In this document: positions 48,401-54,400 of the stretch, piece after piece | How positions within the stretch are numbered: the stretch's first letter is position 1 | How the letters are laid out: each line of letters opens with the position of its first letter | Source: Escherichia coli O127:H6 str. E2348/69 | Lineage (GTDB): Bacteria; Pseudomonadota; Gammaproteobacteria; Enterobacterales; Enterobacteriaceae | NCBI RefSeq assembly: GCF_000026545.1 | Contig: NC_011601.1 | DNA: 64,000 nucleotides | Reading direction: 5' to 3' (one strand) | Program-made: the position numbers

Positions 48401-51400
48401 GCGATGTATAACGTAAACCGTTCCGATAAAAGTAATACATCACATCAATTGGGAATTGGCGGTACTGCTCTGCAAGATAACAACCTGAGTTATAATTTAC
48501 AGCAAAGTTATACTGATAATAATGTGGGTTATGGTGCCAGCATGAATGGACGTTATCGTAGCTCAGTGGGTGAATTCGGTCTGGGATATAGCTATGATAA
48601 AAATAGTCGTCAGTGGAATTACAGTGCGCAAGGTGCGGTTGTTGCTCATGCTCATGGAGTAACATTGGGGCAATCAGTGCAGGATTCATTCGCGATCGTG
48701 CATATTAATGAGGGTGCCAATGTAAAAGTACAAAATGCGCAAGGCGTTTATACTGATTTTTGGGGAAACGCGATTGTTCCCAATATGACGAATTATCGAC
48801 ATAACGCTATTACTGTGAATACTCAGGGGCACGATAGTCTTGATATTTCTGATGCCACACAAGATGTTATTCCTTCGAAAGGTGCTGTTGTCGGTGTCGA
48901 TTTTGATGCACGTAGCGGAATGCGAGCCTTATTGACATTAGTCCATAATAAAGAACGCGTCCCCTTTGGGGCATTGCTGACATTAGGGAATAGCACAGCG
49001 ATTGTTGGTGAAGATGGAGAGGTTTATATTACTGGTGTGCAAGAATCAATGACATTTACGGTACAGTGGGGAAAAGAGATTAACCAGCAATGTACAGGAG
49101 TTATCACTGAACCAGAAAAATACACCACGGGTATCTATAAAGCCACAATGGATTGTCGATAACAAATAAGACAGGAACAAATAATGAAGCCAGGATTTGC
49201 CTCTTATATACGAGCATTATTGACCATAATATTTCTTAGCTGGGGCGTCATTCCTGCGGTTTTCGCCAGTTGCAATATTTCTGGAAATGGAGGAAATCCG
49301 GCAACAGTACAATTCTCCGCGCCTGCGTTGGTTGTTAATAGCGATGCCGTTCCTGGAACGATTATTGCGACAGTAAATGCGAACAGTCCTTCAATTTCAG
49401 TTTCCTGTACGGCAAATGGTGAGATCTGGCAAGGATATACCGTATTGACAAACGGTGATAAGCGTACTGATAACCCACTTACAGATGTGTTTCAGACTAA
49501 TGTGCCAGGAATCGGTTTTCGTGCCGCGTGGGCGAATAACACCAGTGCGCAACTCACCGCCGGATCTTTAATGACGCCCTGGCATAAAGGCTCGTCAACA
49601 GTGATTAAAGGATATGTTTATCCGATTACAATACATGCAGCTATTCAGTTTATTGTCACAGGACCTGTCGGTAATGGGACCATTGATACCAGCAAACTGA
49701 TTGCTGACTGGAAGTATGACAATCGTGTTATTGGAGAGCTTCGTTTTAGTTCCGTTCCGGTCAATATTCAACCGGGCACATGCGACCTTATAGAAAAAAA
49801 TATTACCGTTCCGCTCAACGATATTGGCACAGATGATTTTGATGTTAACAATGTGTCACCTGTAGTTTCTGACGATAGGTTTAAAATTCAGATTGAAAAA
49901 TGCTCGCAGGATGTAAAAGTTGATTACCGCTTTACTTCATCAGGCTCTACGGGGATAACGGGTAATAGTATTCTTAATATTGAGTCCGGTTCCGGAATGG
50001 CAGAAGGTGTTGGTCTGCAGATCCTGGACAGTAGCAACAATGTAATGGTATTTGATTCAGACTATACAGCCATTCAAAAAACGACGTTGAATCAAAATAT
50101 TACTATTCCTTTAAAAGCACGTTACATCAAAACGGGTAGCGTTAAAAGTGGTCGCGTTAATTCTGTCGCTACCTTCGAAGTGTATTACCGATAAGCTTTT
50201 CCCTTTCTCGTGAATGTTAGTGTTTTGTAAGCATGTTTTTATGCATTAGAGCGATGATACTAACATTTTCGATTCATCTGGTTGTTTATTAACCCTTCAG
50301 GAACGCTCAGATTGCGTACCGCTTGCGAACCCGCCAGCGTTTCGAATATTATCTCATCTTTATAATAATCATTCTCGTTTACGTTATCATTCACTTTACA
50401 CCAGAGAAATACCAATGGCGCGTTCCAAAACTGCTCAGCCAAAACACTCACTGCGTAAAATCGCAGTTGTAGTAGCCACAGCGGTTAGCGGCATGTCTGT
50501 TTATGCACAGGCAGCGGTTGAACCGAAAGAAGACACTATCACCGTTACCGCTGCACCTGCGCCGCAAGAAAGCGCATGGGGGCCGGCTGCAACTATTGCG
50601 GCGAAGCACTCTGCTACTGCGACTAAAACGGATACACCAATTGAAAAAACGCCGCAGTCCATTTCGGTTGTGACCCGGGAAGAGATGGATATCAAACAAC
50701 CCGCAACGGTAAAAGAAGCTCTGGATTATACGCCAAGTGTCTTTTCAACGCGTGGTAGTTCAACAACGTATGATGTTGTTTCTATACGTGGATTTACTAC
50801 AGCCAGTACAGTAAATACTAACCAATATCTGGATGGCTTAAAACTTCAGGGGGATAACTACTCTGAAGCCTCTATTGATCCTTATTTCCTTGAGCGTGTG
50901 GAATTACTCCGTGGCCCAGTATCCGTACTGTATGGTAAAAGCCATCCGGGCGGAGTAGTGAGCATGGTAAGCAAACGGCCTTCAACGGATCCGATTAAAG
51001 AGATCCAGTTCAAAATGGGAACGGATAATCTTTGGCAGACCGGATTCGATTTTAGTGATGCAATAGATGATGATGGCGTTTGGTCATATCGTTTGACGGG
51101 ATTAGGACGTAGTCAGGATGCGCAACAAAAGTACGCAAAAACTACAAGGTATGCAGTAGCTCCCTCATTCAGTTGGCGTCCTGATGATAAAACGGATTTC
51201 ACTTTCCTGAGTAATTTCCAGAGTGATCCCGATGCGGGCTATTATGGTTGGTTACCGCGCCAGGGAACTGTTGTTCCCTATCAGGATGCAAATGGTAGCT
51301 GGCACAAATTGCCAACAGATTTCAATGAAGGCGAGAAAGATAATAAGATGTCTCGTCGTCAACAATTAATTGGCTACAGTTTTGCTCATGAATTTAATGA

Positions 51401-54400
51401 TACTTTTACTGTACGTCAGAATCTGCGCTATACCCGCATTCATACACTCTACGATGCAGTATATGGCAATGGTTACATCGCGCCAGCGCAAATTAGCCGT
51501 GCTTATGTACGTTCAGACGAAGATTTAAATTCGTTTACTGTTGATACGCAACTACAGTCCAACTTTGCTATCGGTGCTGTAGCGCATACTTTGCTTACTG
51601 GCGTGGATTACCTGCGAATGCGTAACGATATTGATGCAAACTATGGTACTGCTAATCCGATTAGCATGACGGATCCACAGTACGGTAACGCCAATATCAA
51701 TATCAATTTCCCATATGCGGTAATTAACCGTCAGGAACAGACAGGCCTTTATATTCAGGATCAGTCTGAGTGGAATAAGTGGGTATTGACGCTGGGTGGT
51801 CGTTACGATTTTGCGAAAACCTCTACCTATACTCGTTCAACGAGTTCTTTGGATGAAATTAACGATCAGCAGTTCACCTGGAGAGGTGGTATTAATTATC
51901 TGTTCGATAATGGTATTTCACCTTATTTCAGTTATAGCGAATCCTTCGAGCCAGTATCTGGAGCGACTAAAGAAGGTAAACCGTTTGATCCTTCTCGCGG
52001 TAAGCAGTACGAAGCAGGTGTCAAATACGTACCAAAAGATACGCCTGTCACTGTCACTGCCTCGGTATTCCAATTAACGAAAGACAAAAATCTGACTGCA
52101 GATCCAAGTAATACTTTGTTTAGCGTACAAGGGGGGGAGATTCGTTCTCGTGGCTTTGAGATTGAGGCCAAAGCAGCTGTCAACGCTAATATCAATGTGA
52201 CTGCGGCATACAGCTACACCGATGCTGAATACACCAAAGATACACTGTACAAGGGTAAACGCCCGGCAGAGGTCCCCCGAAATATGGCTTCGCTGTGGGC
52301 AGATTACACTTTCCACGAAACAGCTCTTAGTGGTCTGAGTCTTGGTGCAGGGGCACGTTATTTTGGCGACACCTCAAGTTTCTACACTACGGGTGATAAG
52401 ACCAATCAGACATTCAATGTTGGGGGGTATACCTTAGTTGATGCAATGATAAAATATGATCTTGCTCGTTTCGGTATGCCTGGTTCTTCTGTTGGTGTTA
52501 ACGTAAATAACCTGTTCGACCGCGAATATGTCTCCAGTTGCTATCGTGATTATGCATGTTACTGGGGCGCAGAACGTCAGGTCGTTGCAACCGCAACCTT
52601 CCGTTTCTAATTTCTCTTTTGGGGCACGGATTTCCGTGCCCGTTTCACAAGTTGGCTGTTATGCAGGAATACACGAATCATTCCGATACCACTTTTGCAC
52701 TGCGTAATATCTCCTTTCGTGTGCCCGGGCGCACGCTTTTGCATCCGCTGTCGTTAACCTTTCCTGCCGGGAAAGTGACCGGTCTGATTGGTCACAACGG
52801 TTCTGGTAAATCCACTTTGCTCAAAATGCTTGGTCGTCACCAGCCACCGTCGGAAGGGGAGATTCTCCTTGATGCCCAGCCGCTGGAAAGCTGGAGCAGC
52901 AAAGCGTTTGCCCGCAAAGTGGCTTATTTGCCGCAGCAGCTTCCTCCGGCAGAAGGGATGACCGTGCGTGAACTGGTGGCGATTGGTCGTTACCCGTGGC
53001 ATGGCGCACTGGGGCGCTTTGGTGCGGCAGATCGCGAAAAGGTCGAAGAGGCGATTTCGCTGGTTGGCTTAAAACCGCTGGCGCATCGGCTGGTCGATAG
53101 TCTCTCTGGCGGCGAACGTCAGCGGGCGTGGATCGCTATGCTGGTGGCACAGGATAGCCGTTGTCTGTTGCTCGACGAACCGACCTCGGCGCTGGATATC
53201 GCCCACCAGGTTGACGTGCTGGCGCTGGTGCATCGTTTAAGTCAGGAACGTGGTCTGACGGTCATTGCCGTGCTGCACGATATTAATATGGCGGCGCGCT
53301 ACTGTGATTATCTGGTCGCCCTACGCGGCGGTGAAATGATTGCTCAGGGAACGCCTGCGGAAATTATGCGCGGCGAAACCCTCGAAATGATTTATGGCAT
53401 CCCGATGGGTATTCTGCCGCATCCGGCGGGTGCTGCACCTGTGAGTTTTGTTTATTGATGAGCGGCTTACCTCTTATTTCGCGCCGCCGACTGTTAACGA
53501 CGATGGCGCTTTCTCCGTTGTTATGGCAGATGAATACCGCCCACGCGGCGGTTATTGATCCCAATCGTATTGTGGCACTGGAGTGGTTGCCGGTGGAGTT
53601 ACTGCTGGCGCTCGGCATCGTGCCTTACGGCGTGGCGGACACCATCAACTATCGCCTGTGGGTCAGCGAACCGCCATTGCCGGACTCAGTGATTGACGTT
53701 GGTTTGCGTACAGAACCCAACCTTGAACTGCTGACCGAAATGAAACCGTCGTTTATGGTCTGGTCGGCAGGATATGGCCCTTCACCAGAAATGCTGGCAC
53801 GTATTGCGCCGGGGCGCGGATTTAACTTCAGCGACGGCAAACAGCCACTGGCGATGGCGCGTAAATCACTGACGGAAATGGCAGATTTACTTAACCTGCA
53901 AAGCGCAGCAGAAACGCATTTAACGCACTATGAAGACTTTATCCGCAGCATGAAACCCCGCTTTGTGAAGCGTGGTGCACGCCCGTTATTGCTGACGACG
54001 CTTATCGATCCGCGCCATATGTTGGTCTTCGGTCCAAACAGCTTGTTCCAGGAAATTCTCGATGAGTACGGCATCCCAAATGCCTGGCAAGGGGAAACCA
54101 ACTTTTGGGGCAGTACCGCCGTCAGTATCGATCGTCTGGCAGTGTATAAAGACGTTGATGTGCTCTGTTTTGATCACGACAACAGCAAAGACGTGGATGC
54201 GCTAATGGCAACCCCGCTGTGGCAGGCCATGCCGTTTGTTCGCGCCGGACGCTTTCAGCGCGTTCCGGCGGTCTGGTTCTATGGTGCGACGCTTTCTGCA
54301 ATGCACTTTGTGCGTATTCTGGATAACGCCATCGGAGGTAAAGCGTGAGTAAACGAATTGCGCTTTTTCCGGTGTTATTGCTGGCGCTGCTGGTGGTTGC

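Follow-up and report, generated by a model that had tools for sequence, protein, structure and literature searches.

Evidence for a recombinant fhuA with a type II receptor body in enteropathogenic Escherichia coli E2348/69

The ferrichrome receptor gene fhuA was investigated in a stretch of 64,000 nucleotides (nt) from contig NC_011601.1 (here called the window), which is an exact match to the chromosome of Escherichia coli E2348/69, an enteropathogenic E. coli (EPEC) strain of type O127:H6. The open reading frame (ORF) was 100% identical to E2348/69 fhuA in NZ_CP059840.2, and its product is labelled "ferrichrome porin FhuA" in RefSeq (WP_000124388.1). The protein scored 1328.6 bits against the NCBIfam FhuA equivalog NF007465 (cutoff 803); FoxA, the next family, reached 598 bits, far under its cutoff of 1300. 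In a phmmer search of the PDB, residues 34-731 were aligned over the full length with residues 3-716 of solved FhuA chains (E = 2e-289). Its cluster relatives have PF07715 and PF00593, so that a plug and a TonB-dependent beta-barrel extend across the full length. The TonB box DTITV was present, and mature residues 1-30 were the same as in K-12 FhuA. A sigma-70-like promoter site was located at 50323-50352, inside the native fhuA promoter region. A consensus search allowing up to three mismatches gave no Fur box upstream of fhuA, and the promoter region itself was K-12-like. Downstream, the gene order was that of K-12, with fhuC, fhuD, fhuB and then hemL. Judged from its sequence, E2348/69 fhuA is predicted to encode an intact TonB-dependent ferrichrome transporter.

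FhuA is the receptor for ferrichrome, albomycin, phages T1, T5 and phi80, colicin M and microcin J25, and it also serves many BASEL phages. The initial annotation had described the copy in the window as a protein of 731 amino acids (aa) with K-12-like ends, a substantially different central region and a raised AT content. Comparison with the K-12-type FhuA of 747 aa (L003, 9001-11244) bore out this description. Global identity between the two genes was 66% for the protein and 66% for the DNA. Residues 1-63 (to ...AWGPAATIAA) and the final 15 residues (WGAERQVVATATFRF) were the same as in K-12, and the agreement of the two ends went beyond the protein level to synonymous sites. Nucleotide identity was ~97-100% at 50256-50603 and from 52563 on, and ~62% between. 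The junctions, 50603 and 52563, were obtained from an unsupervised two-breakpoint maximum chi-square scan. Inside 50604-52562, 728 of 1,923 aligned sites were mismatched (37.9%), against 35 of 1,244 (2.8%) outside, where the comparison covered 50256-50603 plus 52563 into fhuC (Fisher p = 1e-137). Thus, identity to K-12 did not stay uniformly above 95% along the gene. The GC content, overall and at third codon positions (GC3), was 0.454 and 0.388 in E2348/69 fhuA and 0.512 and 0.535 in K-12 fhuA, and the GC content of fhuCDB was 0.577.

The two conserved ends differ in what they encode. The 5' block carries the signal peptide, the TonB box and the linker to ...WGPAATIAA; it was 97.4% identical to K-12 over 348 nt, with mismatches clustering toward the junction with a fimbrial island, and it was almost invariant over all E. 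coli fhuA allele classes compared. From 52563 to the stop codon identity to K-12 was 100%, and a single mismatch was found across the following ~200 nt. In the body, synonymous divergence (dS) from K-12 was saturated and nonsynonymous divergence (dN) was 0.31. For mrcB, fhuC, fhuD and fhuB, dS between E2348/69 and K-12 was 0.13-0.18 and dN was at most 0.01. Nucleotide identity to K-12 was 96% over the whole of mrcB and 95.6-97.1% for fhuC, fhuD and fhuB, the fhuC comparison taking in the last 48 nt of fhuA. The view that these neighbours are K-12-like therefore stood, but mrcB proved not to be adjacent to fhuA, a 5.3-kb fimbrial operon lying between them.

The affinity of the body was then sought outside E. 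coli. It was closest to the FhuA of Trabulsiella, Cedecea, Enterobacter, Lelliottia, Pseudescherichia vulneris and Buttiauxella (84-86% aa identity), and only 62% identical to K-12 FhuA. Against the FhuA of Cedecea, Trabulsiella and Enterobacter its dN was ~0.10. In a neighbour-joining tree the body was nested in an Enterobacteriaceae clade, here called type II, and the E. coli alleles of K-12, sequence type 131 (ST131) and ST410 type formed a separate, long-branched group. The N-termini of Enterobacter-type FhuA differ from that of E. coli; therefore, an E. coli N-terminus on a type II body marks the protein as chimeric.

One explanation would be that the body was acquired horizontally, and recently, from a genus already sequenced, for example Enterobacter, Klebsiella or Cedecea. 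The body does cluster with these genera, and in one Enterobacter-labelled lineage mrcB and a type II fhuA are separated, as in E2348/69, by a four-gene fimbrial operon. Nevertheless, among 100,044 species-representative genomes, a scan that relied on six exact peptide patterns and that distant or unusual carriers could escape, the best nucleotide identity was only 74.5%, and synonymous sites were saturated against every candidate. In a collection of 5.8 billion proteins, the E. coli cluster (98%) was followed directly by one at 86% aa, the best outside E. coli. Moreover, the GC content of the segment (0.44) was under that of all candidate homologues (0.49-0.60), and the fimbrial proteins of the Enterobacter-labelled lineage were only 37-60% identical to those of E2348/69. 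A recent import of this kind is thus extremely unlikely. The import would instead be old, or would come from an unsampled lineage.

The class to which this allele belongs was described by Wang, Chen, Zhu, White and Koster in 2018 (bioRxiv 10.1101/320069), who divided E. coli FhuA into four clusters, E1-E4. In their account E4 is marked by insertions in loop (L) 3 and L10; L4 carries a deletion, and L2, L5, L6 and L7 are strongly changed. The cluster is placed in a "Group II" with other Enterobacteriaceae, apart from E1-E3 and the Salmonella clusters. As causes of the pattern they named recombination together with selection exerted by phages, toxins or antibiotics. E2348/69 FhuA has the same Indel 1 (L3) and Indel 2 (L10) insertions, and it is likewise without the L4 and L5 inserts of E1 and E2 and the L6 and L7 inserts of E3. 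It also shares the locus of E4 and the affinity to FhuA of other Enterobacteriaceae, and nothing essential differs. By these marks the E2348/69 allele is a member of E4, a class already in print, and its novelty is accordingly low. Our additions are modest; they comprise the nucleotide junctions, the frequency in a large genome sample, a division of E4 into two subclasses, the absence of a sampled donor, the indication of recent transfer within the species and a parallel in Enterobacter.

The distribution of the alleles was determined in 5,426 complete E. coli genomes, 5,424 of which have fhuA. The E2348/69-type body (E4) was present in 90 of the 5,426 (1.7%). Two subclasses could be separated, E4a (13 genomes) with at least 99.7% identity to the E2348/69 body and E4b (77 genomes) with ~96.3% nt identity. 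K-12-like bodies (at least 95% identity) were found in 3,690 genomes and an ST131/Nissle-like class (80-90% identity) in 1,068, and the K-12 and ST131 classes together made up 4,771. A third class, the 729-aa allele WP_000124383.1 of ST410-type strains, accounted for ~560. Each genome had one fhuA place, and the class counts added to the 5,424 fhuA-bearing genomes; therefore, the types act as alleles and not as paralogues. Up to 50603 and from 52563 on, the sequence was near-identical in all allele classes compared.

The allele and its flanks were uncoupled in several strains. In Z0117EC0005 and 24A16CRGN010 the body was 99.7% identical to that of E2348/69, but mrcB, fhuD and fhuB were only ~94% identical; over all strains with flanks at ~94%, body identity ranged from 99.7 to 100%. 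ST131 gave the reverse case, with B2 flanks 98-99% identical to E2348/69 and a body at 66%. The tract that is near-identical in Z0117EC0005 and 24A16CRGN010 (table 1) marks where the entire allele was recently transferred within the species. The 729-aa protein was 69% identical to E2348/69 FhuA, and its gene had the first ~67 nt after the 5' junction in common with E4. One avian pathogenic E. coli (APEC) genome also gave a 71-nt match at 98.6% to this sub-segment, and the sharing represents a second layer of mosaicism. Between E4a and E4b, dN was 0.009 and dS 0.145, so that the E4 protein is under purifying selection.

Table 1. Coordinates in the window of fhuA, of its parts as named under the proposed recombinant structure, and of the adjacent fimbrial genes
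Feature	Position	Strand	Description
fhuA coding sequence	50415-52610	+	731-aa ORF, first gene of fhuACDB
Native E. coli 5' block	50256-50603	+	Promoter region and first 189 nt of fhuA
Replaced fhuA body	50604-52562	+	653 codons, most of the plug and the whole barrel, GC 0.442
Native E. coli 3' end of fhuA	52563-52610	+	Last 48 nt: 15 aa and stop, running into the spacer and fhuC
Sub-segment common to E4 and the 729-aa class	50604-~50670	+	~98% identity, then divergence (sliding window, alignment)
Tract near-identical in Z0117EC0005 and 24A16CRGN010	~50305-52800	+	~9 differences in 2.5 kb (mismatch map)
Fimbrial major subunit	45313-45879		In operon 44990-50255
Fimbrial chaperone	45925-46642		Frameshifted in E2348/69 according to RefSeq
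Fimbrial usher	46685-49162		Closest NCBIfam model LpfC, under its cutoff
Fimbrial adhesin	49184-50194		In operon 44990-50255

Some further observations were made on the backgrounds in which the alleles occur. Strain DCE7 (L088; pig lung, 4.42 Mb) had a body 100% identical to that of E2348/69. It shared the fimbrial island as well, its own chaperone gene being intact, and its mrcB and fhuC regions were only ~97% identical to E2348/69. Two patches, 50284-50580 (the promoter and first ~190 nt of fhuA) and 52563-52780 (the fhuA-fhuC junction and first ~120 nt of fhuC), were near-identical across very different strain backgrounds, and their conservation exceeded that of mrcB or fhuB in the strains concerned. 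They may have been homogenised by repeated allele exchange, or they may be under strong constraint.

Divergence from K-12 spanned the whole gene, with identities of 66% in the plug and 61% in the barrel. The plug was as diverged as the barrel, which argues against a diversification of the resident fhuA limited to its loops. Considering that the divergence is gene-wide and that dN/dS within the class is ~0.06, the allele would represent a swap of the whole body from an old lineage. It might be supposed that the resident gene instead diverged rapidly in place, by point mutation under positive selection and with no recombination, since fhuA was among the positively selected E. coli genes in earlier genome scans. 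We give this explanation almost no credence, because the two boundaries are knife-edged, synonymous sites are saturated, the plug is hit as much as the loops and GC3 has moved by 15 points. The protein is moreover nearer to Enterobacter FhuA, and not just different from that of K-12.

Beyond Escherichia and Salmonella, K-12-type (type I) FhuA was found, at 88-93% identity, among proteins that carry the labels Buttiauxella, Citrobacter, Lelliottia, Klebsiella, Leclercia and, many times, Enterobacter. In Enterobacter the two types occupy the same mrcB-fhuA-fhuCDB-hemL site. A type I gene (L095, 6001-8250) and a type II gene (L011, 2806-5016) of E. hormaechei share a species-specific first 180 nt (98.9% identical), with breakpoints at gene nt 179 and 2214; nucleotide identity between these points was 65.5%, and mismatches amounted to 34% inside and 2.7% outside. 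As in E. coli, the 3' end too is species-specific. The 5' junction in E. hormaechei lies within ~15 nt of the one in E. coli, in the conserved ESAWGPAxTIAA stretch. This parallel would fit either a long-kept polymorphism of two types or a cassette that was exchanged repeatedly, each time by way of the same patches of conserved sequence.

Accordingly, another explanation has to be weighed, namely an ancient cross-genus polymorphism in which types I and II arose before Escherichia and Enterobacter separated and were maintained in both by balancing selection, E4 being inherited and only its flanks homogenised by recombination. The shared site and the nearly coincident junction in E. hormaechei are in its favor. 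So are several rates. For type I, dS between K-12 and E. hormaechei was 1.29, on a par with the flanking genes (fhuC 1.38, fhuB 1.06, mrcB 0.89), and the dS of 0.145 between the E4 sub-alleles was near that of the flanking genes of the same strains (0.16-0.25). E4 and Enterobacter type II were 85% identical in aa, in line with FhuC (89%), FhuB (84%) and HemL (91%). The proportion of synonymous differences (pS) between type II of E. coli and of Enterobacter was 0.80-0.84, which makes this split at least as old as that of type I. On the other hand, the same pS exceeded that of the flanks (0.57-0.63), and the GC3 of 0.38 was well under that of the surrounding genes. No type II was found in Salmonella by Wang et al. 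(bioRxiv 10.1101/320069), nor in other Escherichia by the species-representative scan, which depends on its peptide patterns. Finally, the type I alleles of Salmonella, Buttiauxella, Citrobacter and Klebsiella are 91-93% identical, a sign of genuine intergeneric exchange. We regard an ancient polymorphism as a serious but somewhat doubtful alternative. If it holds, the E2348/69 allele would be a long-resident E. coli lineage, rare through frequency-dependent selection, and not a foreign import; this consequence is held just as tentatively.

The loops of E2348/69 FhuA were located from the alignment with K-12 FhuA and from published loop definitions. An AlphaFold2 model was also made from a 39-sequence alignment; it was poor (mean predicted local distance difference test, pLDDT, of 53, plug not modelled) and was used neither for loop mapping nor for a fold search. 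In L4, none of the 4 aligned residues was identical to K-12 and there were 21 gaps, the Cys318-Cys329 disulphide and Tyr325 being gone. L5 was shortened, with 2 of 17 residues identical (12%) and 10 gaps. Extracellular loop (EL) 8 was 58% identical, and Phe557 of L8 was replaced by Leu. Relative to the K-12, ST131 and ST410-type alleles, L3 was longer by 4 aa and L10 by 6 aa (5 + 1); the PTEGY and DL inserts of the 729-aa allele were absent, and the cysteine pair of L11 was kept. E2348/69 FhuA and K-12 FhuA (PDB 1BY3, 2FCP, 8A8C) are thus alike in the plug and 22-strand barrel, the N-terminal 63 residues, the operon and the promoter, but they differ in overall sequence (66% identity), in the deleted L4, in L5 (12%) and in the lengthened L3 and L10.

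Retained siderophore import and an altered outer surface are both inferred from these comparisons. Of the residues assigned to the ferrichrome pocket, Arg81, Tyr116, Tyr244, Trp246 and Tyr313 were kept, and Phe391 and Phe693 were replaced by Tyr. Given the intact ORF, the equivalog score, the identical TonB box, the native promoter and the five kept residues, E2348/69 FhuA would still be an importer of hydroxamate siderophores, possibly with a shifted preference. The T5 protein pb5 is known to contact all FhuA loops but EL1-3, as well as Phe115 and Tyr116 of the plug, and 23 of its 27 hydrogen bonds are made with EL4, EL5 and EL8; Phe557 of L8 has been highlighted for several phages. Because L4, L5, EL8 and Phe115 are altered in E2348/69, binding by K-12-adapted phages and by colicin M is likely to be lost. 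In the literature we found no published phenotypic test of the E4 allele against phages, colicin M or microcin J25.

Taken together, we consider it very probable that E2348/69 fhuA is a recombinant in which codons 64-716 come from the type II (E4) lineage, and that this allele circulates in E. coli and probably escapes the users of K-12 FhuA. The junctions, the affinity of the body, its frequency and the uncoupling of allele and flanks are direct observations. The mosaic structure and its origin by recombination, the latter already suggested in the initial annotation, are strongly supported at the sequence level by the sharp junctions, the saturated dS of the body against 0.13-0.18 in the flanks, the Enterobacter affinity and the occurrence of the body in divergent backgrounds. 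Selection by phages or bacteriocins is a plausible driver, and the proposal fits the pattern in that L4, L5 and L8, which bind T5, are deleted or rewritten.

The proposed course of events would be as follows. Homologous recombination would have swapped the resident codons 64-716 for a deeply divergent FhuA body from the type II/E4 lineage, which is common in Enterobacter, Klebsiella and Cedecea. Crossing over would have taken place at two conserved patches, one coding for ...ESAWGPAATIAA and the other formed by the last 48 nt, and the native promoter, signal peptide, TonB box and link to fhuCDB would thereby have been retained. Since then E4 would have persisted at low frequency (1.7%), with ordinary homologous recombination in the conserved flanks carrying it from one background to another. 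Its protein would import ferrichrome-type siderophores yet show a different outer surface, and would probably escape K-12-adapted T5, T1, phi80 and colicin M. Agents of this kind may, through frequency-dependent selection, keep several allele classes in the species.

Nevertheless, several points weigh against this account. First, with best matches of 74.5% nt and 86% aa there is no sampled donor, so that neither the direction nor the date of the transfer is established. Second, a dN/dS of ~0.06 within the class gives no sign of ongoing diversifying selection. Third, the O127 O-antigen and the capsule could outweigh the FhuA loops in governing phage access. Fourth, Gly99Ser, Gln100Val, Phe115Asn and Tyr315Asn are changes at residues assigned to the pocket, and the substrate preference may therefore have shifted. 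These same four substitutions, and an identity of only ~60% between types I and II, could even suggest that FhuA has been displaced by a paralogue, the type II body then being a receptor for another substrate. However, types I and II share one locus in E. coli as well as in Enterobacter and, with a single place per genome, seem never to occur together; the protein has the score of an FhuA equivalog and falls far under the FoxA cutoff, and the ferrichrome pocket retains its aromatic core. We therefore consider displacement by a paralogue very unlikely.

Similar exchanges have been described. Feng et al. 2019 (PMC6715731) reported an allelic replacement of fhuA in the E. coli ST410 B4/H24RxC clone, and two later papers extended such "mosaic evolution" to other porins, with ompA, ompC, ompF and lamB as cases. 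In these cases, too, homologous recombination at a syntenic locus has swapped whole alleles of an outer-membrane receptor gene, the classes involved being less than 74% identical. The ST410 B4/H24RxC event, however, involved allele classes other than that of E2348/69.

The fimbrial operon between mrcB and the fhuA promoter (44990-50255; GC 0.406) is a four-gene chaperone-usher operon and takes the place of 57 nt of the K-12 spacer. It was found in 574 of the 5,426 genomes, at 99% identity or more in only 4; most of them, ST131-like, were at 91.9%. We considered whether the island had arrived together with the E4 allele and rejected the idea: ZF31, Z0117EC0005 and 24A16CRGN010 have the allele but not the island, ST131 combines the island with a different allele, and between the island and the replaced body there are ~350 nt of native sequence. 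The Enterobacter lineage mentioned above (L097-L099, labelled Enterobacter kobei) has its fimbrial operon at 940-5800 in the same layout. At other type II loci, in E. hormaechei, E. cloacae, Trabulsiella, Cedecea, P. vulneris, K. oxytoca and Lelliottia, mrcB was directly upstream. In NZ_OZ369168.1 (BLSE177-2012, ~4142545-4146147) the match to the island ended at query position 3088 and adjoined the last ~480 nt of a K-12-type fhuA, for which the annotation reads "TonB-dependent receptor domain-containing protein". A deletion from mid-usher into fhuA seems to have occurred naturally in this strain, and it would inactivate the receptor.

Three spacers in the region also deserve mention. The fhuB-hemL spacer (56328-56361) has 34 nt, against 157 nt in K-12, and the hrpB-mrcB spacer (~42358-42451) has 93 nt, against 195 nt; this shortening by ~100-120 nt probably reflects small repeat elements that are present or absent. 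The fhuA-fhuC spacer holds a G+C-rich inverted repeat at 52622-52641, GGGCACGG-ATTT-CCGTGCCC, which is conserved with K-12 and was missed by a simple terminator scan because no T-run follows it.

FhuA is a main entry point for siphophages (T1, T5, phi80 and many of the BASEL phages), for colicin M and microcin J25, and for albomycin-type "Trojan horse" antibiotics. About 1.7% of E. coli, the prototype EPEC strain included, have a receptor in which the phage-binding loops are replaced. Knowledge of E4 would be useful for predicting phage host range, for composing phage cocktails and for siderophore-drug conjugates. In evolutionary terms the locus is a clean textbook example of how alleles of a gene for a surface protein are exchanged like cassettes, although the phenomenon and the class have been published before. 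It is also a caution that the receptor biology of K-12 should not be assumed for every strain.

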